DNA of 64,000 nt from Clostridia bacterium. GTDB lineage: Bacteria; Bacillota; Clostridia; TANB77; CAG-465. Location: contig JAZKXT010000004.1 in assembly GCA_045611765.1 (NCBI GenBank), forward strand, positions 68,883-132,882, read 5' to 3'. Both the position numbers and the translations under genes were made by a program. This document shows, piece by piece, positions 35,901 through 56,271 of this stretch (positions within the stretch are counted from its first letter, which is position 1; every line of letters starts with the position of its first letter). Below the pieces are notes generated by a model that saw only the letters and a list, made by a program, of their open reading frames with translations, searched no databases and was not told the DNA's origin.

Positions 35901-38900
35901 AAATTTTAGTACTAATTTCTATCTCATCTTTTAGGTCTTCAAGTTCTTGTTTTTTTGCATCCCATAAATCCTTTGCCTTTTTACGTTCTAATCTAACGTA
36001 TTCTACATCATCTTTATTTATTACGCCATTACTATTAGCGTCTAACTTTTTAGCATCATATTCATAATTAATTGTATGGAATGATGAGTCTGCCCAATTA
36101 TATGACGAGATTTTAACAGAATAGCTATTATCTGCCTTATCCGGATCCGGATTTGCTCCATTCCAACTCCCCTCATTAACATATTTAGCGCTATATGTTC
36201 TGTCTGTATAATTGCTTTCAATATCTATAGTATTTTTAGTGATTTCTCTTCCTTCCAATCCTGTCATTAACAATGTAGGGGTCTTGAAAACCGTCAATGT
36301 TTTTTTATTTTTTTCCCAGTTATATAAACTACTACCAACTGTAACTGCATCTATTGCTCCAGCATCATATAACGTTGCTTTATTAATGCTATATGCAGAT
36401 ATTTCTGTTACTTTATCATAACCAATTACTGTTGGATGATTAAAAGAAAATTGTATATCTTCAGACACAGGCTCGCCGCCAGCAATTGGACGTGTTCCTG
36501 ATACTAATATATCGTATACTATAGGGGTTTCATTTGTTGTGTATTGTGTTGTAACCGCTCCTAAGATAGCACGTGGTAACTTACTAGTTCCCGATTTTAC
36601 TATTGATACTGTACTATCATGACCAGACGGCATCGAGTATGTAGAATAAGATGATTCTCCTTTATACGTATCATCATAACAAGTCGTATTCGGAGTAGTA
36701 GAATCTGATACATCTACTGTCACCTTACCACCAATTACAGGAGTAGGTTCTGTTTTAATCGTCTCATCCTTATAATAATAGAACCAAACTTCTCTAACAG
36801 ATGCGTAATCCTCATTCAACTTAACCTCTACACCATTAGTAGAATCTTTTTCGTTATTCGCAATTCTTGTAATGTCTGACCTTGATGTATATGCATCACT
36901 CCACCTTCCATCTGTCCCCTCAGACAAATCATAGCCTTTATATACTATTCCATTTTTTATTTCTACAGGCTTAACAACCAAGTGTTCATTTGTCTTCATA
37001 CTTATTGGATATACTTCTTTTGTAAATTGATCGTTATTCATTCTCTCTATATCAACTCTATACGTTGGAGTAATAATGTCCCACCAAGCAGATGGTCTTA
37101 TTTCTATTTGAGCTTTAGAATTAGGAACTATGCCTGTTTTATCCGATTCAGGTACTAAAGTAAAGTCTGTTACATCATCATCACCGTTATCCTTAATATA
37201 ACGGTGATATACTGTTACCTCACCAGCATAATCTGAATAATACAAGTCTATCATGTATACTTTATTCTCAGACATTAACATTTCCGAATCGTCTTCATAT
37301 TCGGCATCCCATAAACTTAATTCGGTTACTTCATCTGGGCCCCAATCTTCTGGTGACCATTTTTCATATTTTCCTTTACGTATTCTAAATTCAAGTTGCT
37401 TTAATGCAGTATCATAATCTAACGCTGCTACAATATTAAATCCTATTAAATTTGTTTCAGGATATTTAACATCTTTAATGCTTAATGGGAAATCATAATA
37501 TTTTACACCAGAATATATTTCTGTAAAAGTTCTTCCATTTTCTGTAACTGTACCTGTAGTGTCATTATCTGGTACTGAGTTTAATACATTTCTATCATAA
37601 TCTAAAATTTCACCTAATTTATCTTGCAATGTACCCGTTACTGTGTCACTACATCTATCTGTACAACCTTGCGTTTTGGCTTCATCTAACGCACCTAAAA
37701 TACCACCTACACACGTATTAATGCAACTATTTCTATCCCAACTCCAATCATTGTTGATAGCCATTACGCTATCATTATTAACTAACTCTGTAGATATAAC
37801 ATTGTTAGTTCCAAGGTCAATATGTCTTACATATATTTTAGCATCAGATAGTTGTGGGAATAACAATTCGTTATCATATAAGTTAGCAACAGAGCCTAAC
37901 GCTAGAGAATATTCTTGTGGTTCAGTTCCATACAAGCTAACACTCCAGAATTTATTAGTAGCTGTTACTTTATTTTTGTCATCAAAAAACTCTCTTACTG
38001 TTCTAGATGCTATATATTTATTATCATAATTTTTAGATATTAACACCTGCGATATCATACAACCGTCTTCTTGTTCAGCAACAACCGCTGCATCAACAAA
38101 ATCCCCAACTATATTAGATGGTAGCACGTGATCGTCTACTATTACATTTCCTATTGTTGTTCCGTTATAATTATCATCTAGGTGTATCATGGCGCTTCTA
38201 AATATTGTTTGTTGAGATTCTTTTTTGTTTACTTTAAATGTTCTTTTTTCTTCATTATCTATATATCCACCAATTCTAGATACTGTATAAAATACATTAT
38301 CTGGTTTATCTTGAAAGCGTGCAAAATCATATTTGCTTGTATAAGATGGATATGAATGGAATAAGTTAACTGTTAACGACCCCAGCTCATCTTCAGGATC
38401 ATAATCTGCCCAATCATATACCTCGTCGTTATTTACGTCATATTGCTTCAATGACGAACTTTCACCAACATCGGTATAGTTAAGAGTATTAAATCCAATA
38501 GCCCCAACCCCAACCTTGTCAGCTGAATCTTCAATTTTTGCATATTCACTTAAATAATAATCTTTATGAAATATATATTGTGCTGTTACAAAAGTATTTA
38601 CAGCGGGCAATGGTACTGATGTACTTTCAACAACCCACTTAGAATCATACATTTTTCCGCCATACTCATATTGATAATAGTCACCATTTTTATCTAATTC
38701 ACGAACTAGCATATATCCTGACTTCTTATGATATTTTTTTACCGTTCCTGAATATGGAGTTGTAAATGTTCTAAATATCAATTCGTATGCGTCATCACCA
38801 TCGATATCTGTTTTCCATAAGTGATTAATTAAACCAACTCCAAGCACTTGATTAATATTAAAGAAGATTACACATAAAAACATTATGCTACATATAGTTA

Positions 38901-38916
38901 TTATTTTAGTTTTCAT
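32923..38916 (-). CDS. giant secreted/surface protein (1997 aa), last gene of the Tad-like operon
   Basis: N-terminal signal/anchor (MKTKIITICSIMFLCVIFFNINQVLG). Central coiled-coil about residues 1010-1090. One dockerin/EF-hand-like Ca loop (DANSNGVINKDD). Thr/Tyr/Asn/Gly-rich beta-type composition. No LPXTG. Confidence 0.6.
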   Translation of the reverse strand: MKTKIITICSIMFLCVIFFNINQVLGVGLINHLWKTDIDGDDAYELIFRTFTTPYSGTVKKYHKKSGYMLVRELDKNGDYYQYEYGGKMYDSKWVVESTSVPLPAVNTFVTAQYIFHKDYYLSEYAKIEDSADKVGVGAIGFNTLNYTDVGESSSLKQYDVNNDEVYDWADYDPEDELGSLTVNLFHSYPSYTSKYDFARFQDKPDNVFYTVSRIGGYIDNEEKRTFKVNKKESQQTIFRSAMIHLDDNYNGTTIGNVIVDDHVLPSNIVGDFVDAAVVAEQEDGCMISQVLISKNYDNKYIASRTVREFFDDKNKVTATNKFWSVSLYGTEPQEYSLALGSVANLYDNELLFPQLSDAKIYVRHIDLGTNNVISTELVNNDSVMAINNDWSWDRNSCINTCVGGILGALDEAKTQGCTDRCSDTVTGTLQDKLGEILDYDRNVLNSVPDNDTTGTVTENGRTFTEIYSGVKYYDFPLSIKDVKYPETNLIGFNIVAALDYDTALKQLEFRIRKGKYEKWSPEDWGPDEVTELSLWDAEYEDDSEMLMSENKVYMIDLYYSDYAGEVTVYHRYIKDNGDDDVTDFTLVPESDKTGIVPNSKAQIEIRPSAWWDIITPTYRVDIERMNNDQFTKEVYPISMKTNEHLVVKPVEIKNGIVYKGYDLSEGTDGRWSDAYTSRSDITRIANNEKDSTNGVEVKLNEDYASVREVWFYYYKDETIKTEPTPVIGGKVTVDVSDSTTPNTTCYDDTYKGESSYSTYSMPSGHDSTVSIVKSGTSKLPRAILGAVTTQYTTNETPIVYDILVSGTRPIAGGEPVSEDIQFSFNHPTVIGYDKVTEISAYSINKATLYDAGAIDAVTVGSSLYNWEKNKKTLTVFKTPTLLMTGLEGREITKNTIDIESNYTDRTYSAKYVNEGSWNGANPDPDKADNSYSVKISSYNWADSSFHTINYEYDAKKLDANSNGVINKDDVEYVRLERKKAKDLWDAKKQELEDLKDEIEISTKISWEEALANEAEIKEKLTELKNAVSDTRKLLNDNITDSFKNLKCEKKWFAGGLNIYVGQCYDSLNIGTSYTTWKEARDTAQYLVNKTNSYISFMKGADKLGGYDNPIKTYYNSTGSKLVIKPDGVTKSIEFSLESVAVALNGYSRVIYSWSKEGSILNYKTKLTNEVNAANSHEGAKCWDDDNLIYAWQGYCAGTTDDYVSKRNAQITAIYSQMKNIDTALGNIEKEIDKELSFLVNIAKYIVLNEEVGEALTQYSEWNEEWEWMIENYPTGKVRYDEYMFMYGQSETDNNADVASTYDITFKLRVQNMDVQVDDILLNSAQPNNKVEKTYKIAELLTDIDNPEGKIEVKTTPIKIPKEYYETGIGEQDYVEARGHIHYNILNGVRVLAGEVKYTLKDLMGIGYSDITGIKDTVYYPSISDEYKDSSFYRTHTNLIQKYQINNEPTVDNPRYEYVDPINIYTPITVNSAFETTSNNIVDQSTKNEGNGLVQSNVPFTITINNMSKTLTFGDVTKNNVYGLNDTTDYGATSSYSSPYYIKFDFDVHKVFINDRVYNGGGKVIAGTWIRVKRNASGIGKVTAQAYGAVDELDVSPLSEGEVQYHVRATAYNSTSLMLSESTRYKAIEELANEMKEDVENICEHPSYFAEQNQNKILILNRIYGFKVTDVKDVNWKSVFRTNTSSKVNVHNGTVYYSGITKWKKESTQTNEIVPRTLTEIGRNPLRTLPIGPYKNTDNTYINAPKMGYRFSFDMNVTGSYYKGDSANNEKQVTINTRFYYISKDGKTYLKEYDSSNKSEGIYLFYKASNGKYVRIDNDGGGYNINFTPNDGYRYIQDEVTDHFSKSSINIGHLRTIELTYKMATPNANDSVITYYGEYKLPNSTIAVKVDKNGNYDINKPLTNGYIGVVFDIIASSNGIDLSYSKDTQAGKANTSQWDYEGFMGYSNYGKAVTSNNDVSLRLEGGVWNITSDTVYNEVKGTVMLYDLDSRAATDFD

Positions 38917-40292: not shown

Positions 40293-41357
40293 CTATGGTT
40301 TGCATATTGGACATGGATAATACCCTTGCGTTGCCGCTTCAGCTCTATTTATATAAAATGCTGGCACTAATTTTTCTTCTGTATGGTTTTTCCATGATAA
40401 ATAAGCTTTACACTCATTCGACATATGATATAGGTTTCTTGCTAAATAAGATATATCTGTTCCAGATTCAGAAACCACGCCTTTACTTAAATAATATTTG
40501 TTTGCCGATACCAAATCCGATGCACTATATGCTTTATAATTTAAATATCTATTTCCTAAAGATATTCCTTGGATTATTGCTATCATTCCTATTCCGTCCA
40601 TTGTCTCATACCATTCTTCATCAGATGCTACCGAAAACTGAAACGAATACTTTATCCCAGTAAGCCTTGCAAAATCATTATGTTTATTTACAGCATAAGA
40701 TATTTCTTGCATTGCAATTCTTGCTATAGTTGCTGTTCTAATAGATTCTAATTCTTTTATCTTAGCATTATTACCTAATACACCATTCATTTTTGAATCA
40801 GTTAAATAAAAAGATCTCGTATCATATATTTCTCCATTAGATCTATACCTAGTAAGATATATATAATCATCCATTGTAAACGTTACTTCATATGTAAGGC
40901 TACCACTAGTATATGTGTGCATATACTTTACCTTGGGTTTAGTTACAAATATTGTGTTACCAGTAGTTATATCTTTTTCAGCTGAATGTATATATATACC
41001 ATCATAATCTAATACAGCTACAACAGGTATGTACATTTTAAGATGCTCTAACGACATAGTATTATTATTAATATTAAAGCTACTAGAAAGAGAATTAAAG
41101 AATGTATTTACAGCCATATTTGCATTTATACTAACTTTATTATCTACTATTCCCGAATAACCATAATCTATGTTTTCATCTTCATTTTCTACCTGTTTCA
41201 TGGAAGAAACAGCATCCTGAACTGCTGAATTCATCAGATTCTTATAATACATCTCCTGCTTCTCGGATTTTACTAAAAATGATATATTAACATACACTAT
41301 TATAACCACAGGTAAAAATATTGCTACAAATATTAGTGCAAAATCTGTTAATCTCAT
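40293..41357 (-). CDS. N-terminally anchored (pseudopilin-like) extracellular protein (354 aa) ending in Cys-rich YYPCPICKP
   Basis: N-terminal MRLTDFALIFVAIFLPVVIIVYV hydrophobic segment. Confidence 0.5.
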   Translation of the reverse strand: MRLTDFALIFVAIFLPVVIIVYVNISFLVKSEKQEMYYKNLMNSAVQDAVSSMKQVENEDENIDYGYSGIVDNKVSINANMAVNTFFNSLSSSFNINNNTMSLEHLKMYIPVVAVLDYDGIYIHSAEKDITTGNTIFVTKPKVKYMHTYTSGSLTYEVTFTMDDYIYLTRYRSNGEIYDTRSFYLTDSKMNGVLGNNAKIKELESIRTATIARIAMQEISYAVNKHNDFARLTGIKYSFQFSVASDEEWYETMDGIGMIAIIQGISLGNRYLNYKAYSASDLVSANKYYLSKGVVSESGTDISYLARNLYHMSNECKAYLSWKNHTEEKLVPAFYINRAEAATQGYYPCPICKP

Positions 41358-41431: not shown

Positions 41432-44400
41432 TTAATTGACTACAAATGTTCTACTTACTTCTTCTACATTGCCAGCTATATCATATGTTCTTATAGTAGC
41501 TGTCATTGTTCCTTTTTCGGTAATTGTTTTTGTTATACTGCCACCTGCATTACTTATACTTCCAGATATCACATGTGTGCCATCAGATTTAACAAGTTCA
41601 TATGTACATCTATCGAATCCACTTAAATTATCTGAACCTGCTATAAACTCCATTTTCACTTGTCCCGAGTATACATGCGTATACCAATCCATTGTATAAA
41701 TATCATTAAACTTCATGTTCGTACCAGTCGGAGCAGTTTTGTCTAGTTTAATTGTTTTTTCTTCCAATACTGAATTGCCATTTGAATCCTTAGTCGTTAT
41801 TGTGACTTTTGTTCCGCTAGTATTAGAAGTTATTTCATTACGAGACAAAGTAACCATAACCTCTCCACTATTGTCACTTCCACCTGTATACGATAAAGCA
41901 ACATTTTGATTATACCATTTACCCTCCTCGTAAGACTGGCCGTTTACAAGTAATGTTGCAGGCATTGGTGGTAGTTTGTCTATCACTGTCGTACCTATAT
42001 TTCCTGCTTTATCCTCAAGGGCAATTGTTAACTCATATTTGCCATCACTAGGTAACGTTACATCGCTAGACGTTCCACTGCTTATCCCACTACTAGTTTC
42101 TAATTGCCATCTTCTAGCTTTAAAACCAGAACCATACTCTGTATAATCTAAATATCTTTTCTGACCAGCAACTGATGTGACTAAAGCTGGTGGTGTAGTA
42201 TCTACTTTTATAGACCTTGTCTCAGATGTGCTTGACTTTCCAGCTTGTGTATACGTAGTTGCGTATAACGTATATTGTCCATCGGCTAAGTCTTTTTCTT
42301 TAACGAATGTAGTAAACTTTTCACCAACTCCATTTACATATAAATATCCATATGAATACCCTGATGCTGCGCTTCCTGTATCAACAGTTATTTTCACTTT
42401 TGGTTTAGTAATATACCAACCTTCATTGCCTAATCCACCTTCTATTATCTCTAGAGTGGCTGGTTTCGGATTGGATTTATCAAATTTTAGTTCTCTCGTA
42501 CTTTCGCTATAGTTTCCAGCCTTATCATATGTTCTGGCTATAATTTTATACTCTCCGGGCTCCGTTAAAGTTACGGATGTCGGATTAAAGCTATTATAGT
42601 TAACACCTTCATTTTGAACTGGTCCTTCTATTTCATATGTAGTTTTCCAAAATCCACTTGTTGTATCTGAACCATTGGAAATTTTTATAGTAATACTAGG
42701 AGCTATAGCAGTATCATATGCTAAATACCAGCCTGTACTTCCATAATAATAGCCAGATACATTTACAGCAATAGTTGGTGAAGTTGGCGCGTTCTTGTCT
42801 ATTTTTACCTCAAGTGCAACTTTGTCACTTTCATTTCCAACATAATCTTCTGCATAACCTCGCACCGTTCTTGTACCATTCCATGATACAGGATATGTGG
42901 TTACATCATATAAAGAATCGTATAAAGTTAAAGCGTTTTGGATTTGTAAAACGTTACGCCATACACCACTTCCACCTTTATCCGCTGTAGAAGGCGCTAG
43001 ACTTATCGTTACATCAGACCTGTACCACGTTACATCGTCTACTGTGTTGCTAACCCCTTCGGCAACCAAACTAGGTGGAAAAGGCTTTTTATCATCTTCA
43101 AGTACTTTGTACCCATTGCTTTTAGCTCCAGCCAATGCAAGTAATACAGTATCTGAATGTGGATTATTATCTATAATTGTTCCTTCTTCTTCTATGTAGA
43201 TATCATTTAATAATTCGCGTTCTATTTCTTTTTGCGCCCAACCTTCCTCTAATTGAAAGTAATTATTATTGCTAGTTCCAGTGTGTGCGAATTTTACCAA
43301 AACGCGTTCCGCATATTGTGACAGAATATCTACTCTATACTCACCCATATATAACTCTTCATCTGTCCAACTCTCAACAGTCAAATTATTTACATTCTTT
43401 AATGTATCAGAATTCTTTATAGCCTTTTCTATTTTCTCTTTAATAGCTTCTTGATTAGTTGTACCTAGTCTTGGAAAAGATATTATAAAACAAATTTCTT
43501 GGTCTTCAGTCGCTTTTATATAATTATCCACCCAACTGTCATTAACATAAGCTGTATTGTCTACCATTCTAGACTCGGCTAAATTATTAGTTTTTACTAG
43601 CTTCTTCCAATTATATGGCCCTAAAATAGTAGTATGATTTCCCGAATTCTCATCAAATAATTCTATTGCAACCGTTTCTGCCGCAAGAGATGCTATGCCG
43701 TTTTTGTCCTCTCCCAATCCTGGTAATACTGTAACAGTTGCATCTGCAGCTATATAGTCTAAAACTGACATATGCACATTAGTAAGTTTTATTTCTAATT
43801 GATAGTAATCTTCCACGGATATAAAATTCAAAGCAATATTAGCATACATTCCATTTAATTTTATGTAATTACTTATTATATGATTTGCTATATCACTACT
43901 CCATACTAAATCTTTTATAGGAGTATAAACATTTCCTGTATCTATCTTATCAAAATTTCTTAATTCAGCTAGAATTGTTATTTCTGTATTATTTGAATCT
44001 GACAAGTCATATTGATATACATATTGTCTTTCTTCAACTTTTTCACACAATTCTGCAAGTTCCGAATCTATATCTACATCATCACAATTTAACTCGTCAA
44101 CAAAGCTCGATTCTGTTATCACAGATTCTTTTTGTATGTTAGTTTCTCCTTTTTTGTTAACAGGAACTGTTAATATAACTTCCGGAACTATGTCTTGAGA
44201 TGCTTGTATTTTATTATATAATTCCCAGTTTACATTATTAATGGCCCCACCATAGCTTATATTTACTATTTTACTGTTTGACGATTCTGAAAAAGAATCA
44301 CGTAAAATACTCGCTATGGTTTTGTTTGTGTTATATACTTTAACATATATCTCGTCGTTTTTCTTTAATAAATATACTCCGTCTTTTATATTTGTTTCAT

Positions 44401-44776
44401 TTGCACTAATCTTATTAGTTTGCTTATCTTCCCATACATCAAATATGTCTTGAGTATTATATAATATTTTTTGTTCACCGTATGTTTTAACATTGCCATC
44501 GGAATCTCTTTCCTCTGGAACAAGAATACTTCTATATGCCTCTATAGACACATTATATATATTGCCTGTGGACGCTATAGCATTCATATAGTCTGTATAT
44601 GATTGTTCATCTATAAATCCATTGGTCCTAACCTTATCCACAAAATTAGTAGTGGCAGTTAAAACAATGTTATATGCCATGTTATCTTGTCTATCTGCCA
44701 AACTGTATAATGGAAATATAACTACAAAAAATGTTCCTATAATAGTTGCAATTATAATGCTTATAGTATCTTTCAT
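41432..44776 (-). CDS. large pseudopilin-like protein (1114 aa): pilin-type N-terminal helix + six C-terminal about 90-aa beta-sandwich repeats each ending in a D-x-A-G-N motif
   Basis: N-terminus MKDTISIIIATIIGTFFVVIFPLY... is homologous to that of the 405-aa protein. Repeats: EDYVGNESD, YDKAGNYSE, YTQAGKSST, EDKAGNIGT, DSNGNSVLE, YDIAGNVEE. Confidence 0.55.
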   Translation of the reverse strand: MKDTISIIIATIIGTFFVVIFPLYSLADRQDNMAYNIVLTATTNFVDKVRTNGFIDEQSYTDYMNAIASTGNIYNVSIEAYRSILVPEERDSDGNVKTYGEQKILYNTQDIFDVWEDKQTNKISANETNIKDGVYLLKKNDEIYVKVYNTNKTIASILRDSFSESSNSKIVNISYGGAINNVNWELYNKIQASQDIVPEVILTVPVNKKGETNIQKESVITESSFVDELNCDDVDIDSELAELCEKVEERQYVYQYDLSDSNNTEITILAELRNFDKIDTGNVYTPIKDLVWSSDIANHIISNYIKLNGMYANIALNFISVEDYYQLEIKLTNVHMSVLDYIAADATVTVLPGLGEDKNGIASLAAETVAIELFDENSGNHTTILGPYNWKKLVKTNNLAESRMVDNTAYVNDSWVDNYIKATEDQEICFIISFPRLGTTNQEAIKEKIEKAIKNSDTLKNVNNLTVESWTDEELYMGEYRVDILSQYAERVLVKFAHTGTSNNNYFQLEEGWAQKEIERELLNDIYIEEEGTIIDNNPHSDTVLLALAGAKSNGYKVLEDDKKPFPPSLVAEGVSNTVDDVTWYRSDVTISLAPSTADKGGSGVWRNVLQIQNALTLYDSLYDVTTYPVSWNGTRTVRGYAEDYVGNESDKVALEVKIDKNAPTSPTIAVNVSGYYYGSTGWYLAYDTAIAPSITIKISNGSDTTSGFWKTTYEIEGPVQNEGVNYNSFNPTSVTLTEPGEYKIIARTYDKAGNYSESTRELKFDKSNPKPATLEIIEGGLGNEGWYITKPKVKITVDTGSAASGYSYGYLYVNGVGEKFTTFVKEKDLADGQYTLYATTYTQAGKSSTSETRSIKVDTTPPALVTSVAGQKRYLDYTEYGSGFKARRWQLETSSGISSGTSSDVTLPSDGKYELTIALEDKAGNIGTTVIDKLPPMPATLLVNGQSYEEGKWYNQNVALSYTGGSDNSGEVMVTLSRNEITSNTSGTKVTITTKDSNGNSVLEEKTIKLDKTAPTGTNMKFNDIYTMDWYTHVYSGQVKMEFIAGSDNLSGFDRCTYELVKSDGTHVISGSISNAGGSITKTITEKGTMTATIRTYDIAGNVEEVSRTFVVN

Positions 44777-45147: not shown

Positions 45148-45597
45148 TTATTTTCTTTCCCCCTCTAGCTCATAACGAATTATTATATCGCCGTTATATT
45201 CATATACTTTTACGTCATATTTATTTTCATAACTGAATAATTCTCCTTGAAATTTTTTATTTCCTTCCATTAATTCTTGGAGTTTTTGTGATGGTCTCTG
45301 TCCGTTTGCCTCTGCCACTGATTCAATATTATCTCTTTTAAAATATTCTACCACTATATTTTGATCAGTATATTCGTATTTTTTTACAACATTAAGTAGA
45401 CCGACACCTGTATCTTTTCTCCCATCATACATTGCGTAAATATTATCAAACTGACTATATATATCCGTATCTGTTTCATCAACAAAACCAAATATTTCTT
45501 TCATTTGACTAAACATAGCAAAAAGCGCTGTTGCAATCGACACTGTAATAAACAAACTAACAGCTATAATTACCACTTTAGTTGACAACGCATCCAC
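45148..45597 (-). CDS. pseudopilin-like protein (149 aa), GTG start
   Basis: MDALSTKVVIIAVSLFITVSIATALFAMF N-terminal helix. RBS AGGTGGTG. Confidence 0.45.
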   Translation of the reverse strand: MDALSTKVVIIAVSLFITVSIATALFAMFSQMKEIFGFVDETDTDIYSQFDNIYAMYDGRKDTGVGLLNVVKKYEYTDQNIVVEYFKRDNIESVAEANGQRPSQKLQELMEGNKKFQGELFSYENKYDVKVYEYNGDIIIRYELEGERK

Positions 45598-45621: not shown

Positions 45622-46839
45622 TTAGTATGACCACACTCCAACTATTTGCCTTCTTCCATCAAATTTTTTACTAGCCTCATCCATCTCATCATACTTTCCA
45701 GCGTTATATGTCTGTGTAGTCAAATACCCAAACTTAGGAACACTTTCTAATTTTATACTTTCTTCCACTTTTTTATCATTAATATATAAATTAACTATAC
45801 ATTCTTTATCCTGTACTTTATCTACTGCAATTTCTATTTTAGTATCTGCCATTATATCTGTTGGATAAGATAAAATTGTAGTATTTTCAACAAGAATTGA
45901 AACTCCATTCAAGCCAACACTTACAAGCATGTCACCGGTATTGACAAAGTTGTACATTAATTGTATATCTCCTGTATTTAATACCCCTTTTGCTCTTAAT
46001 TCTGTTACCGTTTTTGGCGTAACTTTCAAAGCAACTTTATAATCATCGGTCGGATTTATAATATTCAAGTTTGAAGTGCTATGTTTCATTGCTTTTAATC
46101 CCACAACACTACTTGTAATGCTACCATAATCTACTTCGCCTATCCATTTACTAGCTAAAATTCTTCCGCCATAATTTACATATAGTCTAGTATTTGTATC
46201 TATAGCGTTTGCTGTTATAGAGTTATATAAAATTGTTGCCAATGTAGTATTAGTATTACGTATAGTTACATTAAAGTTGTCTCCTTCATTTAACAAATAT
46301 GCATAATGTTCTGTTCCATTAGATAGATTTAATTTTTTTTCATTTTCTAAAATATTTACAATATGCTCTGTTGTATATACTTGCTTAGATACCCTATATG
46401 TATCTTCAGACATAAAATCTGTTGGAATTTTCCCAAGTTTACCTGCTAAAAATTTATCCTGTTCATCCTTTTCTAACCCCATTTTATCTTCTGCAGATAA
46501 CCACTCTTCTTTTTGTTCTTGTGTTGTTGTTGCGACTAGTTCATACTTTCCATCCTTTTTTATATAATAATTGGTTATAGGATCATACCTTGTATATTCA
46601 TGTGTAAGTTCTATATCATACGAATTGCCTGTAAGGCGAAGTCTTCTTTCGTAATCACTATACATGTCCCTTGTTATATATCCCTTATTTCTTACTTCAT
46701 CTACAAAATCTTGTGTGTACCTCATAGCAAGTATATATGATATATCGTCTTTCTTTTCATATGCCATATATACAGGGAATATGAAAAGAAGAACTATGGA
46801 TATTATAACAATAACAATTGTTTGTAAACTGTCTTCCAC
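45622..46839 (-). CDS. pseudopilin-like protein (405 aa) sharing an N-terminal module with the 1114-aa protein
   Basis: MEDSLQTIVIVIISIVLLFIFPVYMAYEKKDDISYILAMRYTQDFVDEVRNKGYI matches MKDTISIIIATIIGTFFVVIFPLYSLADRQDNMAYNIVLTATTNFVDKVRTNGFI. Confidence 0.5.
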   Translation of the reverse strand: MEDSLQTIVIVIISIVLLFIFPVYMAYEKKDDISYILAMRYTQDFVDEVRNKGYITRDMYSDYERRLRLTGNSYDIELTHEYTRYDPITNYYIKKDGKYELVATTTQEQKEEWLSAEDKMGLEKDEQDKFLAGKLGKIPTDFMSEDTYRVSKQVYTTEHIVNILENEKKLNLSNGTEHYAYLLNEGDNFNVTIRNTNTTLATILYNSITANAIDTNTRLYVNYGGRILASKWIGEVDYGSITSSVVGLKAMKHSTSNLNIINPTDDYKVALKVTPKTVTELRAKGVLNTGDIQLMYNFVNTGDMLVSVGLNGVSILVENTTILSYPTDIMADTKIEIAVDKVQDKECIVNLYINDKKVEESIKLESVPKFGYLTTQTYNAGKYDEMDEASKKFDGRRQIVGVWSY

Positions 46840-46851
46840 TTGTTATCCCCC

Positions 46852-47259
46852 TTAATAATCAATTATCTTATCTGGAGAAGAAATATACAATATCTCTCCT
46901 TCTTTTGTCACTGTATAGTTCCAAATTGGATTTATTTTATCTAGCATTTCTTCCTTAATATTGCCTGTACTATATCGCCAACTCCCACCTAATGTAGTGC
47001 CATTAAACCTTATTGATACGCTATCATCTGTTATATATTTAGTTATTAACGAACGCACATCTACCCCTGTTAAAGTCGTCGCATCTAAATCTTCCTTTTT
47101 CATTATTTCATCATATTCTGAAGCTATATCTGTCCTATGCCCCACTTGTTCAGCAACATCTATTGCTTTACCATAATATATTGTCATGGCGGATATAACC
47201 CCCATTATTATAAAAACTGAAACACTTATAAAAATAATCCTTACTGACCACTCTTCCAT
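46852..47259 (-). CDS. pseudopilin-like protein (about 135 aa)
   Basis: Start at the second ATG (AAGGGGA RBS). MEEWSVRIIFISVSVFIIMGVISAM N-terminal helix. Confidence 0.45.
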   Translation of the reverse strand: MEEWSVRIIFISVSVFIIMGVISAMTIYYGKAIDVAEQVGHRTDIASEYDEIMKKEDLDATTLTGVDVRSLITKYITDDSVSIRFNGTTLGGSWRYSTGNIKEEMLDKINPIWNYTVTKEGEILYISSPDKIIDY

Positions 47260-47360
47260 AATGTTCCCCTTTCTAATTAACAAATATAAAAAGAATTGAT
47301 TATACCGTGTTTAATTTCTTCTTATATTTATTAATTTCAATATAAATTAACATATCTTAA

Positions 47361-47391
47361 AATAGCCTTAAAAAGGCATACAACATAATTA
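47361..47391 (-). terminator. attenuator-type hairpin (AAAAGGCATA-N11-TATGCCTTTT) immediately 3' of the candidate major subunit gene
   Basis: 10-bp perfect stem seen directly, in the 133-bp gap inside the operon. Confidence 0.45.
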
Positions 47392-47416
47392 TATGCCTTT
47401 TAAGGTTAAAATTTAA

Positions 47417-47863
47417 TTATATAGCTTTTTTGAAATATAAGCCTATAACATTTCCATTCGTATCAAGAATAACAGCAGAAGTATACCTTTCACTCTTAAT
47501 AGCAGCTAGAGCATCGGTTAAATTAGGTGTGGCTGCATTCTTAGTAGAAGAAACAAGACCACCTGCTTTTGGACTACCTGTTACTGTTAGTGCATATTTA
47601 CCATAGTTGGTACTATCTATAAGAATTCCCATGCTTTTTATGTATTTTCTAACAGCTGTTCCTACAGAAGTTGCGCTTAATGTTTTTCCGTCATATACAT
47701 TGTATAATTCGTTTTTTAAATCTCCTGTTATGCCAGAAATTTGTCCACCAGCTTCATCCATCATTCCAGTACCTAAGTTTACTATTAATAGTACTGCAGA
47801 TATGATTATGATTGTAATGAAAAGTCCAACACCAATCATAATCGCTTTTTCTGTATTATCCAT
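47417..47863 (-). CDS. candidate major filament subunit (148 aa) with archaeal/Tad-type class-III-like N-terminus
   Basis: MDNTEKAIMIGVGLFITIIIISAVLLIV. Strongest RBS in the operon (AAAGGAGGT). Preceded by a 110-bp gap and followed by a hairpin, the usual arrangement for a highly expressed major pilin. Confidence 0.45.
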   Translation of the reverse strand: MDNTEKAIMIGVGLFITIIIISAVLLIVNLGTGMMDEAGGQISGITGDLKNELYNVYDGKTLSATSVGTAVRKYIKSMGILIDSTNYGKYALTVTGSPKAGGLVSSTKNAATPNLTDALAAIKSERYTSAVILDTNGNVIGLYFKKAI

Positions 47864-47972
47864 ATTTATTTACCTCCTTTATAGATAATATATTATAATA
47901 TATTGTTACTCACTTTTTAAGTGATATAACCTTTATATATGTTAAACGCCTATTTGGCGATATAACCAATTT

Positions 47973-50069
47973 TTACATGTTCAATACTGACATTTGTGAT
48001 ACGAGTTGCATTATGCTCACAAGTAGTAATGGACCAACAAAGTATGCCGCTACCAATATTATTAAAGGAGTAAATCCAATTGCATTTCCCATAGTAGATT
48101 TTTTGTTTATTATTCTTTCGTTTGTTTCTTTCCTTTTTTCATATTGGAAACTTCTCTCTGTTTCTAGTTCATCAAAGGCTTCTCTTATTGGTATTCTTTC
48201 TACCGCCGAAATTAACGCTTCTACTATACGCTGGAAGTCTTTTTGTGGAACTGAATCCTTTAAGTCCTCTAAAGCTTCAATTGCACCTGCTTCATAGTTG
48301 TTTAAAGCTGTAGAAATCGGCTCTTTATATGCGTATGAATATCTTTCAAGCCATTCTAATACCGTTTGTACATCAACTCTTTCAATATACATAAGCATTA
48401 GTATTATTGACCTAAACTGCATTATTTCGTCTTCTCTTTCCAAAGCCCTTATTTTATTTTTAATAATTAAAACAATATTTGGTATGAAATATACTCCCCA
48501 TGCAACGAGCAGCGCTATTATCATTTCCCAAAATTTCATGAAATTATCTTTGACGCCTTCTATTTTCCCAAGAACTCTTTCAACATCACTATCCAAAACC
48601 TTTTGTTCCTCTTCAGCTCCCGATGCGCCCATTTGTTTTTCTAGTTCATATCTTACATCTTCTTCTGTAACATTTTTTTCGTTCTTTAGCTTGTCTACAA
48701 TTTCCTTGTCGCTTTTATTTAACGCTTCTGCCGCTTGTCTGTCTTCGTCAGATAGGGCTCCAAGGCTTAAGAATTCTTCGCTAATTTCATTATATATACT
48801 ATTTAAATCTATCGCATGTATATTTATTAACAAAACAAACATGGCTACAAAAGCTATAATCGCATACGTAAACTTATTAATGTAGAACCACTGCAGAGTT
48901 AAATATGAGTTTGTCGACTTAATTCTTTCAGTAAGTCTTTTATGTTTCCTCGTATGCTCGCTTGGCATGAAACCTCTTATTACAAATTTAACAAGTGGAA
49001 ATTTGTAAAGCTTATCTTGCCATTTTTCAGTTACAATTCTATCGAATTTTATTTCGTTAGAATCTTCTCTTATTAGTTTTAAGGCAAAGTATGCTACAAA
49101 TATTGATACCATTATTAGTGTACGGATTACAAATCCAATACTGCTTGAATAGAAATTTATAAGTGCTGGGAAGTTTGTTGATGCCCAGTTTTCTACAATT
49201 TGTAGGAAGAATATTGGTGCTATAGCTATTGCTGTCAAACTTCTAAATTTATAATTTATTTTGTCTTTTTTTAGTAGCTCCAAATATACATCGTTTAGTA
49301 TATTGTTTAAGTTTTTTAAGTATACTGACACTCCCTCTACTTTTCTATCTCCAAGTTCCATTGTAAGATAGGATACACCAGCAAAAAGTTTTAAAAATTT
49401 ATTTGGTGCCGTATCATAATATTTCTCAAGCATTACGTCAGGATTATCTGATGTTATAGCATCTCTAATTCTTCTTATTTGAGGCATTATTTCTTTGTCC
49501 TCAAGCTCTTCTATAGCATCATTAAATGCTTCTTCTATCATACCATGCTCATGGAATGAGTGTCTTATTTCTGTAAAAACTTCCGGTAATTGTGTCATTA
49601 TCTTATCTGCTACTTTATTAACCCTAGAGTTAACCATAACATCATTTATTATGAACACCATAAGTATTACAACAATTGCCGTATATAAATCCGAAACTAC
49701 ATTTAAGAAGACAAACAGCGCTGCAAATATAAATAATAAAGATAGTAACATTATCGAGCCTGTTTTTCTTCTTATTTCATACTCGGTATAATCATTTACC
49801 ATTTCTAGTTTAAGTCTTGTCTTTCTAGTATAGTATTTTATAACTGGTAGTTTTACCAATATTAAATATGCTACTTGAAATACTCTATCCAAAATATCCT
49901 TAATACTTGTTTTATTCTTTACAACTATTTGATCTTTTTGAAATAGCTTTGAATTACTTGCATATTTTTTCTTTGTTACATTATAGTATATTATAACAGC
50001 AAGTAAGCCTAAAAAGGCAATTCCAACCATGCCAATTATAATATACAGAGTTCCATTACCCGCTGCCAT
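47973..50069 (-). CDS. GspF/TadB/TadC-family inner-membrane platform protein, apparently two fused T2SSF-like modules (698 aa)
   Basis: Two repeats of a TM helix, cytoplasmic helical domain, then TM helices. Adjacent to the secretion ATPase. Confidence 0.5.
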   Translation of the reverse strand: MAAGNGTLYIIIGMVGIAFLGLLAVIIYYNVTKKKYASNSKLFQKDQIVVKNKTSIKDILDRVFQVAYLILVKLPVIKYYTRKTRLKLEMVNDYTEYEIRRKTGSIMLLSLLFIFAALFVFLNVVSDLYTAIVVILMVFIINDVMVNSRVNKVADKIMTQLPEVFTEIRHSFHEHGMIEEAFNDAIEELEDKEIMPQIRRIRDAITSDNPDVMLEKYYDTAPNKFLKLFAGVSYLTMELGDRKVEGVSVYLKNLNNILNDVYLELLKKDKINYKFRSLTAIAIAPIFFLQIVENWASTNFPALINFYSSSIGFVIRTLIMVSIFVAYFALKLIREDSNEIKFDRIVTEKWQDKLYKFPLVKFVIRGFMPSEHTRKHKRLTERIKSTNSYLTLQWFYINKFTYAIIAFVAMFVLLINIHAIDLNSIYNEISEEFLSLGALSDEDRQAAEALNKSDKEIVDKLKNEKNVTEEDVRYELEKQMGASGAEEEQKVLDSDVERVLGKIEGVKDNFMKFWEMIIALLVAWGVYFIPNIVLIIKNKIRALEREDEIMQFRSIILMLMYIERVDVQTVLEWLERYSYAYKEPISTALNNYEAGAIEALEDLKDSVPQKDFQRIVEALISAVERIPIREAFDELETERSFQYEKRKETNERIINKKSTMGNAIGFTPLIILVAAYFVGPLLLVSIMQLVSQMSVLNM

Positions 50070-50078
50070 ACTCTATAC

Positions 50079-51971
50079 TCACCCCCATGCTGTGTCTAAG
50101 AATTTATCAAATGCTTTGATATCTTCATCAGACATGTTTTCACGCATAGCTTGTACATTTGCTTCTGACAGTTGATGTACAAATATATATTCGCCATCTT
50201 TAAATTCTACTATGTTGTGATAATCATAGTTCGAAGTTTGAGTCATATGCCTAAAGTATTCAGTAGCGTTATCCATGAATGCTTCCCATTTGCCTTCCAT
50301 ATTTTTAGCTCTTTTGTATCCATCGTGATAGTTAAACTCTTTCTCTTTTGGAACACACTCTGTTATTCTCTCTATATATCTTGTTCCGTCAACACCTCTT
50401 TTTAGGTGAACGTCAAAGTTTATAACGTTAACAACCTGTACTTCTGCAACATCTTCATTGTTAAACATACCTATTTTTAAAAGTGAGTTTCTTAGTGCAG
50501 TTATAAGGTTAGGGAATGTTTTAGCGTGGTGCGTAAATAATGTGAATTTAGAAGCAACCTGCGCCATTTGTATCATCCATGCAGCAACCGGGTCAGTTGC
50601 AACCTCTCCTAGGATATTAACACCACCATCTGTTTTCTTTTGAACATCTAGACCCATTTGTCCAGTGATTGTGTCTGTCTCTCTTAAAGACAAGATATTG
50701 TTTCTAGGATATATTTTTCTTAAGTGAAGTTCGAATGCTGTTTCCTGAACACGCATCGTTATTGTTGGGTAAAGGTATTTCATTATAGCCATAAGAAGTG
50801 TTGTTTTACCACAACCTTGTTCACCCGTTATTGCTGTAACACGAGCACCTCTAATTAAGTATTTAAGTAACTCTATTACTGGTTCTTTGTTTTTATGTAC
50901 TAATAATTGTTCTGTGTCTATCAAAGTTGGTGGAGCAAACTTTCTTACGAAGAACGCCCACGACTCTGCAAAGTTAGGTCTTAATACAACTATTCTGGAA
51001 CCATCTTTCATTTCGTTGATTTTGAAACCAACTGATTCAGATAATTGTCCTGGATTATTGTATTTGTATATGTTTTGACATACACGTCTAAGCTCTGCTT
51101 CGCTGCCGAATGATAAGAAAGATAAATACATTGATTTACCTTTATAGAAAATCCATACTGAGTCGTATGACATTGGTATATTGAATTTTCCTGTTTGATC
51201 TAGGTAATCCTCCATGTCACCAACTTGGTCTAAGAAGCTAGGTGGTATACCTGAAACTCCTCCTGAAACACCGTCTATATTTTGGTCACGTATATCATCT
51301 ATTACGCTAAATCCTTTATATCCTTGATAAATTCTTTGAACAACTATTTCTAATTTGTCTTCAAAATCTATTGGTGTTCCTTCAACTTCTTCTTCATAAA
51401 TATGATTTATTTCTTCAGCAGTTATTACATATGATGGAACTTTTGCGTCATATTCGAATTTTGGTTCGTCTAGTCTGTATTTGCTTATCATATGGTTTAA
51501 TGCATTAGATTTATATTTTTTCTTATACAAATGAAGTAATATGTCGAATTGGTCTTGCGCTGTCATTTTTTCTTTGCTATCGAAAGGTATTGCGAAATTT
51601 AGGTTTCTATCTGTTACCTTATATTGGTTTTTTAGTAAGTCAAACATTAATGATTTAACATACTTCTTGTCGTTAGCAGATGCATAACCCGCACCTTTTA
51701 AAGCTTTTTTCAAATCGTACTTTGTATTCTTTCTTCTTTCGAATTCATCTTCAGAAAGAGCAAGATCGTATAAGTTCATTCTAGTTATTTCGTCGAATTC
51801 GTGTTTTATAAAATCAGACATTCCTTTTATGCTGTATTTTTGTCTTTCACGTTCAACTTCATCCTCAATTCTTGTGTCTTTTTTAGAGGTTGCTGCATAA
51901 TATATACCTGCAACAACTAGAGCGAACATAACTATTATTAATATTGTGTTAAATATAAATGAAAGTGACAA
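50079..51971 (-). CDS. VirB11/CpaF(TadA)-family secretion ATPase with an N-terminal TM helix and about 250-aa N-terminal extension (630 aa)
   Basis: Walker A GEQGCGKTT in the expected position for the CpaF/VirB11 P-loop; N-terminal MSLSFIFNTILIIVMFALVVAGIYYA. Confidence 0.6.
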   Translation of the reverse strand: MSLSFIFNTILIIVMFALVVAGIYYAATSKKDTRIEDEVERERQKYSIKGMSDFIKHEFDEITRMNLYDLALSEDEFERRKNTKYDLKKALKGAGYASANDKKYVKSLMFDLLKNQYKVTDRNLNFAIPFDSKEKMTAQDQFDILLHLYKKKYKSNALNHMISKYRLDEPKFEYDAKVPSYVITAEEINHIYEEEVEGTPIDFEDKLEIVVQRIYQGYKGFSVIDDIRDQNIDGVSGGVSGIPPSFLDQVGDMEDYLDQTGKFNIPMSYDSVWIFYKGKSMYLSFLSFGSEAELRRVCQNIYKYNNPGQLSESVGFKINEMKDGSRIVVLRPNFAESWAFFVRKFAPPTLIDTEQLLVHKNKEPVIELLKYLIRGARVTAITGEQGCGKTTLLMAIMKYLYPTITMRVQETAFELHLRKIYPRNNILSLRETDTITGQMGLDVQKKTDGGVNILGEVATDPVAAWMIQMAQVASKFTLFTHHAKTFPNLITALRNSLLKIGMFNNEDVAEVQVVNVINFDVHLKRGVDGTRYIERITECVPKEKEFNYHDGYKRAKNMEGKWEAFMDNATEYFRHMTQTSNYDYHNIVEFKDGEYIFVHQLSEANVQAMRENMSDEDIKAFDKFLDTAWG

Positions 51972-54811: not shown

Positions 54812-56095
54812 TTATATGGTATTTTGTTGTAAAGTTTTTAACCCCTTCACCGTATATGTGTCTACCATGTATATTATATAATCCCATAGATTAGATTTGT
54901 TTGCTTCACTATTTACAATAAGTTTAGCTTCATACATTACTTCTCCATTTGCATTTATATATTCTACTTTTCCTATGCATTCGCCTTTTGTAATCGGCGC
55001 CTGAATGTTTTCGTTATATTTTATTTGTTTTGTATATTCTACATTTTCACCTTTTTTAGTTATTAAATATTCATCTTTTTCTAACGTCACTTGAACTTTA
55101 GAAGCTATATGCTTGTTTATTTGGATTTCATCTATTACTTCTCCCTTTGTTCCTATCTTCTTACTAGCGTATGTAGAAAAACCGTAATTTAACAACGTTG
55201 CGACCTCTTCGTTTCGAATAGCGCTAGTTGGCGCTTTCATAACAACTGCTATTAAAGATAATCCATCACGTTCAGCCGTTGCAGAAAGATTAAATAGTGC
55301 TTGAGATGTAGAACCTGTTTTAAGTCCAGTTATTCCTTGATAACTCTTTAATAACTTATTGGTATTAGACAATTCAAATGTTCCATTTCTTATACTATCC
55401 ATCCAAATAGTAGTATATTTAGTTATATCTGGATGCTTAGTAATTAATTCTTTAGACATTATTGCTATATCTTTAGCAGTTGTGTAGTGTCCATCTTCAT
55501 CTATACCATGTGCATTTAAGAAATGAGTATTTTCCATTCCTAACTCTTTTGCTTTAGCGTTCATCATAGCGACAAAATTCTCATGACTTCCGCCAACTAG
55601 TTCCGCCATAGCAACACTTACATCATTAGCAGAAACTACACAAATACATTTTAGAGCCTCATCTACAGTTAAAGTTTCCCCTTCCTTAAACCAAATTTGC
55701 GAGCCACCCATGCCAGACGCGTTAGCACTACAGGTTACCGTATCCGTATACCTTAAATTTCCGCTGTCTATTTGTTCCATAACAAGCAACAATGTCATAA
55801 TCTTGGTAACAGATGCTGGTAATAATCTTTCATTTTCATTGTTAGCATATATTATCTCTCCAGTAGTCGCTTCCATAAGTATCTGAGAACCAGATTGAAA
55901 TGTAAAAGTTGGATTTGCCGTCGTTTGTATTGATGACTCAGCAGTTTTATACATTTTATTTTGTGTCTCTACCAATTCACTATTACTCTCAACTACAGCA
56001 AAATCCGGCAAAGCATATATGCCGATTGGTGCAATTATGTTAGATAGTGTTATAACTATAACAAACATTGTTAATATCTTTCTGAAATTTTTCAT
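54812..56095 (-). CDS. D-alanyl-D-alanine carboxypeptidase (PBP5/DacB-like serine peptidase S11)
   Basis: SVTKIMT (SxxK), SANDVS (SxN) and KTGST (KTG) motifs. Start at MKNFRK (AAGGAGG RBS), signal peptide. Confidence 0.75.
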   Translation of the reverse strand: MKNFRKILTMFVIVITLSNIIAPIGIYALPDFAVVESNSELVETQNKMYKTAESSIQTTANPTFTFQSGSQILMEATTGEIIYANNENERLLPASVTKIMTLLLVMEQIDSGNLRYTDTVTCSANASGMGGSQIWFKEGETLTVDEALKCICVVSANDVSVAMAELVGGSHENFVAMMNAKAKELGMENTHFLNAHGIDEDGHYTTAKDIAIMSKELITKHPDITKYTTIWMDSIRNGTFELSNTNKLLKSYQGITGLKTGSTSQALFNLSATAERDGLSLIAVVMKAPTSAIRNEEVATLLNYGFSTYASKKIGTKGEVIDEIQINKHIASKVQVTLEKDEYLITKKGENVEYTKQIKYNENIQAPITKGECIGKVEYINANGEVMYEAKLIVNSEANKSNLWDYIIYMVDTYTVKGLKTLQQNTI

Positions 56096-56271
56096 AGTTT
56101 TCCTCCTTAACCTTGTTACAATATATGGGCTAAATGCATGTTTTATGATTATTTTGATGCTACTAAATAAACCCAACGAGGAGCCTTAATATCCCCGCCC
56201 GCCACTCACGGTATACGCATCATTAACTTCCTTATGATATTCGTGTAAAAGGCTTTTTAAGCATAGAAAAT

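Follow-up and report, generated by a model that had tools for sequence, protein, structure and literature searches.

The pilus gene cluster of TANB77, an uncultured gut order, was described as a Tad-like cluster exclusively conserved in this order (PMC11680825; Nat Commun 2024;15:10726). Its genes were reported in the order CpaB, TadZ, CpaE, TadA with one transmembrane helix, a fused TadC and TadB of 693 aa, and the pilin-like proteins 932-938; TadA and TadC/TadB were assigned through structural homology. The pilus was linked to the response to cancer immunotherapy, and protein 938 was tested; no major pilin, terminator or prepilin peptidase was named in that report. CNNProm predicted promoters before 933, 934, 935 and 937, and none before 932. 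Here the corresponding operon is analyzed in a stretch of 64,000 nucleotides from a Clostridia bacterium (contig JAZKXT010000004.1, positions 68,883 to 132,882; hereafter the window), with the focus on a 148-aa pilin-like gene on the minus strand (47417..47863) and the intergenic gaps on both sides of it. The gene order matches the published one, as do the protein sizes (378, 241, 268, 630, 698, 148 aa and so on in the window; 358, 231, 280, 640, 693, 165 aa and so on in the published cluster), and thus the 148-aa gene is the counterpart of protein 932. With a probability of about 0.6, this gene encodes the major subunit of the TANB77 pilus, and its cistron is set apart by stem-loops, with more pilin being produced than machinery or minor pilins.

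A genome scan yielded 71 related loci from metagenome-assembled genomes of gut Clostridia, including scaffolds of CAG:465, CAG:921 and CAG:1219. The synteny of the whole cluster is kept in about 65 of them. The anatomy consists of the assembly genes, a 5' hairpin (H0), a Shine-Dalgarno sequence (SD), one or more pilin genes, two 3' hairpins (H1 and H2), another SD and the minor pilin-like genes. The gene directly upstream of the pilin gene encodes a 698-aa polytopic membrane protein (47973..50069, minus; stop codon 47975-47973), which corresponds to the fused TadC/TadB platform by the structural homology reported in PMC11680825. It is syntenic in 69 of the 71 loci with 52-80% identity. With this platform gene and a CpaF-like ATPase gene directly upstream, the pilin gene stands in the context of a type IV filament system.

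The open reading frame that the sequence-only reading had singled out as a 148-aa pilin-like gene is confirmed, with an ATG start. The translated protein begins with MDNTEKAIMIGVGLFITIIIISAV and is present in NCBI only as an entry without a name. Its 636 homologues are all without annotation and are mostly 128-204 aa long. In an alignment of 30 sequences, residues 1-32 are nearly invariant (MDNAQKAIMIGVGLFITIIIISAVLLI.NLGT), and the rest is hypervariable in both sequence and length. Overall, few proteins of the cluster are as poorly conserved as the pilin; in most loci its identity to the window copy is 29-58%, against 71-93% for TadA. The first pilin copy directly follows the platform gene in about 60 loci with a callable upstream gene, and in three further loci there is either an additional, oppositely oriented pilin copy or a contig that lacks the machinery genes. 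The pilin gene is present in one to four tandem copies in these loci. The AlphaFold2 model includes a 54-residue N-terminal helix (residues 3-56), followed by one helix and four to six strands, with a mean predicted local distance difference test score of 81.7. The long N-terminal helix with a small alpha/beta head in this model is the generic pilin shape. The invariant N-terminus, the hypervariable head, the tandem copies, the place of the gene behind the platform gene at the head of the pilin-like series, and the conserved strong SD described below together indicate that the 148-aa gene probably encodes the major filament subunit; the proposal of such a role had been made from the window, and it gains comparative support from the related loci.

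No family was assigned by Pfam at threshold to any of the pilin-like proteins, and the 148-aa protein has no Pfam match at E <= 0.1. NCBIfam gave no family at threshold for it and one sub-threshold match to srtB_target (E 0.09). It is also distinct from Flp_Fap, with no Pfam match, a length of 148 aa (40-80 aa in the family) and no G/XXXXEY motif. A K-A|I-M sequence in the N-terminus resembles archaeal sites and is a possible site of that style. The coding region for the invariant N-terminus contains an inverted repeat of 7 nt, ATGATTG...CAATCAT, at 47839-47833 and 47814-47808 (minus), in the codons for IMIG and TII. It is found in most homologues and forms a weak hairpin of -5 to -7 kcal/mol, which may be either a by-product of conserved codons or an element for translation or stability. 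The contigs L066, L067, L069 and L070 break inside the variable part of the pilin gene (contig ends at ~10100-10190), two to four tandem copies are present elsewhere, and L022, L027 and L038 are also among the loci with contig breaks or copies. The breaks and the tandem copies suggest strain-level diversity and amplification of the gene within populations.

The SD of the pilin gene, AAAGGAGGT (47872..47880, minus), is a perfect 9-nt match located 8 nt before the ATG. It had been called the best SD in the operon. This is right for the length, as it is the longest uninterrupted anti-SD match of the operon and is ideally spaced; it is not right for the duplex energy of -13.4 kcal/mol, which is equaled or exceeded by three genes (47973-50069, -14.3 kcal/mol; 45148-45597, -14.5 kcal/mol; 40293-41357, -13.4 kcal/mol). 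Of the 72 first pilin copies, 51 have AAAGGAGG and 58 have AAGGAGG, with a mean free energy (dG) of -12.4 +/- 0.8 kcal/mol and a median spacer of 8 nt. The SD is kept across loci, and the strong site is thus a conserved property of the pilin gene.

Downstream of the pilin gene, the conserved 3' hairpin H1 (CCUUAAAAGGCAUAUAAUU-AUG-UUGUAUGCCUUUUUAAGG; 47366..47405, minus) has its core GG at 47397-47396 and its core CC at 47376-47375. It begins 11 nt after the stop codon in the window and 11-29 nt after it in most loci. A 10-bp stem (AAAAGGCATA/TATGCCTTTT) had already been recognized here; it is present and extends to a stem of ~17-20 bp (47405-47366) with dG -19.7 kcal/mol. The 3' gap had been taken as 133 bp, on the basis of TTG 47283 as the next start in the mechanical list of open reading frames. 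The next gene starts instead at ATG 47259 behind the SD GAAAGGGGA, as indicated by this SD and by the starts of its orthologues, and the gap is therefore 157 nt long. The fold z is -5.56 for the 133-nt interval and -5.59 for the true gap, which places the hairpin far from chance. H1 is among the ~9 strongest simple hairpins in the window and is the only strong intergenic one within the operon; other long gaps inside the operon are unstructured (z -0.5 and +1.8).

The consensus of H1 is AAGG(U/C)AUAUAAUU, a variable-length loop and (A/G)UUAUAU(A/G)CCUU. It is located after the last pilin copy in almost every locus, and after one of the copies in a few. Beyond the 53 distinct sequences retrieved by the first motif search, the covariance model R1 detected H1 in L052 and L062. 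In the 53 sequences, 95% of the cells are paired, compared with 87.6 +/- 0.7% for shuffled sequences and 34-54% for slid controls, and changes on both sides are seen at 7 of 16 pairs. Compensation is seen, for example, as U-A/C-G at the third pair of the core (C-G in the window) and as A-U/C-G and U-A/A-U within the outer stem. For covariation, the score is 0.231, compared with 0.119. Of 48 sequences, 35 have U.G at pair 24-41, and the core is without any A.C, so the pairing fits RNA of the sense strand and not of the opposite strand. In these wobbles, the 5' arm almost always supplies U and the 3' arm G, and the 5' arm (GGTATATAAT) thus appears to be more constrained than the 3' arm. The asymmetry may reflect a few inherited events or an extra role of the sequence.

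H1 is also specific in its position. In 1.36 Mb searched on both strands at E<0.01, all matches of R1 are at the 3' site of pilin genes (47361-47411 in the window), and the echo on the opposite strand scores lower in all loci but one. With one site per locus, a dispersed REP-like repeat is ruled out. A search of positions 46800-48100 against Rfam 15 gave only chance-level matches (E >= 1), none of them at H0, H1 or H2. The sequence-only reading had named the hairpin a 3' attenuator. What is established is a structured, covarying and site-specific element directly 3' of the gene; the attenuator role itself is plausible from the form of the element. Two other ideas were dropped by eye: alternative pairing of H1 and H2 through GGUAUAU, which is not conserved in the sub-clade of the window, and a mini-ORF in the H1 loop, whose AUG occurs in some loci only.

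In the window, H1 has the form AAAA-GGCAUAUAA...UUGUAUGCC-UUUUU, with UUUUU after the core GCC, and looks like the ordinary intrinsic terminators of this genome. Its long stem is rich in AU and is closed by G-C pairs. It shares the style of A-tract, stem and U-tract with the hairpins at the gene ends 54796-54754, 32909-32880 and 59422-59387. Ordinary terminators are conserved in structure and not in sequence. H1 differs from them in that the core GG(U/C)AUAUAAU...UUAUAU(A/G)CC is kept where the pilin heads are only ~30-40% identical. The T-run after H1 comprises 4-5 residues in 30 of 57 loci, 3 in 7, 2 in 19 and 0 in 1. Loci without H1 have a substitute hairpin, which is a G+C-rich stem with a U-run in L004 and L010 and a long AU hairpin with no U-run in L006, L016 and L023. 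Metagenome-wide, the exact palindrome AGGTATATAAT...ATTATATACCTT was found in 107 stretches, 42 of which adjoin a pilin gene and ~5 more of which are pilin fragments at contig edges; the remaining stretches are in unrelated, often terminator-like contexts. The sequence of H1 is thus enriched at pilin loci and is not a unique signature of them. On low-GC contigs, the core palindrome with T-runs was observed after unrelated genes in L081, L088, L090, L154 and L172 (after a 355-aa gene), and likewise in L122, L124, L130, L142 and L165 (after a 132-aa gene), and it therefore behaves like an ordinary terminator there.

The second 3' hairpin of the window, H2' (AAATTAATAAATATAAGAAGA-loop-TCTTTTTATATTTGTTAATT; 47275..47337, minus), has a stem of ~21 bp and was obtained with RNAalifold from seven loci of the sub-clade. 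It ends ~2 nt before the SD of the next gene, and its loop is variable. With the start of the next gene at ATG 47259, the 3' arm of H2' is outside the coding sequence. Across 52 distinct loci, the segment equivalent to H2 has a median dG of -18 kcal/mol and a median z of -4.4, with z < -2 in 47. A candidate promoter of the next gene, GGTATAAT at 47305-47298, was rejected, since it sits in the variable loop of H2' and is unconserved. The next gene (46852..47259, minus) encodes a 135-aa pilin-like protein and has the SD AGAAAGGGGA at 47274-47265. Its orthologues begin with MEDFSIRAIVIGV and are placed after H1 and H2 in related loci. The downstream proteins each have a short polar stretch followed by a hydrophobic helix, and neither Pfam nor NCBIfam assigns them to a family.

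The upstream gap had been described as AT-rich and ~110 bp long, with TATAAT-like elements; it is 109 nt long (47864-47972), with TATAAT at 47897-47892. Two hairpins are found in it. H0a (GGTTATATCGCC-AAAT-AGGCGTTTAAC, then ATATA; 47941..47967, minus) is the conserved 5' hairpin, detected by folding and found in most loci, and H0b (GGTTATATCAC-TTAAAAA-GTGAGTAAC; 47905..47931, minus) is a second H0-like hairpin, duplicated in the sub-clade. The duplication was observed in the window and in the loci closest to it (L001, L003, L011, L040 and L058), and most loci have one copy. The two copies of H0 in the 5' gap and H2' in the 3' gap are contents beyond those recognized before. The H0 consensus consists of GGUUAA(n), a variable upper stem-loop and UUUAAC, then AUAUA, and it ends 18-45 nt before the ATG in most loci. 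RNAalifold on a MAFFT alignment gave no structure, as the sub-clades are one column off, and an alignment by the covariance model was used instead. In this alignment, which leans towards structure because it is fitted to the model, double changes are seen at all ten pairs, and the covariation is 0.248 compared with 0.106 in shuffles. Matches of the covariance model R2 (47932-47971 in the window) are found only 5' of pilin genes, including the extra opposite-strand copies in L004 and L010, except for a weak match over H1 in L038 (E 0.35).

A perfect 18-nt AT palindrome, AATATATTATAATATATT (47887..47904, minus), holds the TATAAT of the 5' gap. It is specific to the sub-clade, being found in ~10 loci (L001, L002, L003, L008, L009, L011, L040, L047, L054 and L058) and absent in loci with a short gap. 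Three further candidates were dropped by eye: a sigma-54 -24/-12 reading of GGCATATAATTATG has the wrong spacing and is unconserved, an integron attC-like reading of H0 (GTTAAA...GTTTAAC) has the core sites in the wrong order, and TTAACA in H0 as a -35 element leaves no room for a -10 element ahead of the SD.

From this anatomy, the following mechanism is proposed. The most likely start of transcription is the operon promoter, which precedes the CpaB-like gene. H1 would stop part of the transcripts, protect the 3' end of the pilin segment, or do both. H0 and H2, which lie beside ribosome-binding sites, could shield the 5' ends of segments released by processing, and the near-consensus SD at optimal spacing would maximize the translation of the pilin. 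The net outcome would be a pilin output above that of the machinery or the minor pilins, which agrees with the general idea in the sequence-only reading of a classic layout for an excess of the major subunit. In the window, the interval from H1 to the next gene contains no convincing promoter, and expression of the downstream genes would thus need read-through.

Several observations weigh against this proposal, which concerns uncultured organisms. The pilin has no significant fold or sequence match to solved pilins, including type IV pilins and archaellins. Its invariant N-terminus, MDNAQKAIMIGVGLFITIII, lacks G-x4-E and thus the class III motif G(-1)/E(+5). The prepilin-peptidase motif GxG[DE]x[KR] gave no candidate among open reading frames from 100 aa upwards, in a search by motif only that covered the window and, for the 71 loci, the surrounding +/-10 kb; its one match, GSGEVK in L011, is not peptidase-like. 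The stem of H1 has only 2-3 G-C pairs, and only UU comes after it in 19 of 57 loci, a poor tail for intrinsic termination. The published promoter prediction before the next gene would make read-through unnecessary, and the constrained 5' arm of H1 with its perfect TATAAT hints at an extra sequence-specific role. The lack of a match to known pilins, of a canonical processing motif and of a nearby peptidase candidate by motif search, and the fact that PMC11680825 assigned no major pilin, would suit a minor pilin or a membrane-anchored accessory protein, with the fibre formed by another pilin-like gene of the cluster. This is unlikely, given that the contrast between N-terminus and head, the tandem amplification, the place after the platform gene, the strong SD and the flanking hairpins are traits of a major subunit that the downstream genes do not share to the same degree. 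It is quite improbable, too, that extra pilin transcription is driven by an internal promoter, TTAAAA-17-TATAAT (47920-47892). This sequence matches the consensus at 10 of 12 positions, the palindrome with its TATAAT is kept in ~10 loci of the sub-clade, and a transcript starting there would have a short leader still containing the SD. On the other hand, promoter-like matches in the region number 90 against 96 +/- 10 in shuffles, with no excess, the -35 position is unconserved even in the closest loci, there is no TG extension, and CNNProm in PMC11680825 predicted none before 932. In many loci, the 5' gap is only 47-56 nt long and is filled by H0 and the SD, and an internal promoter, as had been suggested from the window, is not supported as a conserved feature.

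It is possible, if less than likely, that the hairpins act mainly through selective RNA processing and stabilization and that no transcript ends at H1 through termination. An endonuclease would cut the spacers, for instance at a point separating H1 from H2 or immediately 5' of H0; H1 would block 3' exonucleases, and H0 and H2 would block a 5' exonuclease, each on its own segment; this explanation overlaps with the mechanism proposed above. It accords with the back-to-back arrangement of H1 and H2 in nearly all loci, with the location of H0 and H2 each just before a ribosome-binding site, with the third of loci without a U-tract after H1, and with the sequence-level conservation of the stems, which suggests recognition by a factor. 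The UU tail of the 19 loci makes processing or stabilization an equally viable mode for H1 itself. The run of 4-5 U in the window and in the 30 loci and the resemblance of H1 to ordinary terminators argue for termination, and a cleavage site is not identifiable from the sequence. Very unlikely is an action of H1 as DNA, either as the operator of a dimeric regulator or with its 5' arm as the -10 element for the downstream minor-pilin genes. In its favour, nearly every locus keeps the perfect TATAAT in the 5' arm, with drift in the 3' arm, and a promoter is predicted before 933 in PMC11680825. However, the spacing of the arms varies widely (20 to 36 nt over the element as a whole), and a fixed dimer operator is incompatible with such variation. 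The U.G wobbles are A.C mismatches on the other strand, so that the symmetry is RNA-like, no -35 element or TG extension is conserved upstream of the arm, and a few inherited events may explain the wobble asymmetry.

A wider interpretation, which is tentative and has little probability at present, is that H0, H1 and H2 are an order-wide family of cis-regulatory RNAs read by a dedicated factor, and that the pilin represents a new class of type IV filament subunits. If this is true, the factor could be, for instance, a regulator that binds RNA or a specific RNase step, and it would set the pilin stoichiometry or provide feedback on its supply. Such a pilin class would be of non-Flp type, have 32 invariant residues at its N-terminus and lack a linked prepilin peptidase. 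The more constrained 5' arm of H1, with its perfect TATAAT, could be one sequence that serves both as a terminator arm and as a promoter or pause element.

The frame of the operon is suggested by a promoter-like sequence, TTGACT-17-TATTAT (54717-54689), after the terminator of the upstream PBP5 gene (54796-54754), and by a terminator-like hairpin after the last large gene (32909-32880), which together give ~21.7 kb. The genes upstream of the pilin encode an SAF/CpaB-like protein, two ParA/MinD-like proteins (TadZ/CpaE-like), the 630-aa ATPase and the 698-aa platform protein. The ATPase is distantly related to CpaF/TadA (PDB 8rkd, E 2.6e-7; TIGR03819, E 3.6e-6), and its gene (50079-51971, minus) gave no match to Pfam T2SSE at E < 0.01. 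Membrane anchoring is unusual for a Tad ATPase. A hydrophobic, apparently membrane-spanning segment, MSLSFIFNTILIIVMFALVVAGIYY, was observed at the N-terminus of this protein, in line with the single transmembrane helix given for TadA in PMC11680825. The PBP5-type D-Ala-D-Ala carboxypeptidase gene (54812-56176, minus) is directly upstream of the pilus operon in 53 of the 71 loci and is separated from it by its own terminator; the placement may represent a conserved link between cell-wall trimming and pilus assembly. Two giant proteins are encoded at 41432-44776 (1114 aa) and 32923-38916 (1997 aa), both on the minus strand, each with a pilin-like polar N-terminus and hydrophobic helix. The 1114-aa protein contains the bacterial Ig-like domains Big_13 and Big_3_2. 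The 1114-aa gene is syntenic in 64 and the 1997-aa gene in 23 of the 71 loci, and the two proteins may be tip adhesins on a pilin-like anchor.

The gene cluster itself is already published, and its regulatory layout is of the classic kind; since such a layout is textbook, general understanding would not be altered by it. What is new is protein 932 as the probable fibre subunit, with an N-terminus that is invariant across the order and a hypervariable, amplified head, and three conserved RNA stem-loops that are absent from Rfam and from the published description. The main subunit of the TANB77 pilus and its regulation had been left open in PMC11680825, and protein 932 is now the likely fibre subunit. 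This assignment indicates to experimenters which protein is probably the dominant one visible to the host, and offers a possible order-wide marker peptide. The three hairpins are mutable targets for the control of subunit ratios in an uncultured Clostridial lineage and are candidates for new RNA motif families.

Compared with known systems, the closest is the published TANB77 cluster, which shares with the window the gene order, the sizes and the series of pilin-like proteins with one N-terminal transmembrane helix; that paper describes neither the hairpins H0, H1 and H2 nor the invariant N-terminus and tandem amplification of protein 932. Type IV pilins and archaellins differ from the window pilin by G(-1)...E(+5), which is absent in the latter.

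Terminal stem-loops set segmental mRNA stability in the papBA operon of E. coli and the cip-cel operon of Clostridium cellulolyticum. In these operons for multi-subunit surface structures, stem-loops at the ends of cistron segments set the abundance, and the parallel to the present operon is one of anatomy alone. In the tad locus of Aggregatibacter actinomycetemcomitans, Kram and colleagues reportedly described in 2008 a "termination cascade" after flp-1, with pilin transcripts exceeding those of the downstream genes. The two loci are alike in being Tad-type operons with terminator structures after the pilin gene. In A. actinomycetemcomitans, flp-1 is the first gene of the operon, and Flp is a protein of ~75 aa with a G/XXXXEY motif. 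In contrast, the pilin gene of the window follows the assembly genes, its product belongs to a group of 130-200 aa proteins that lack the Flp motif, and its hairpins are conserved in sequence across the order.

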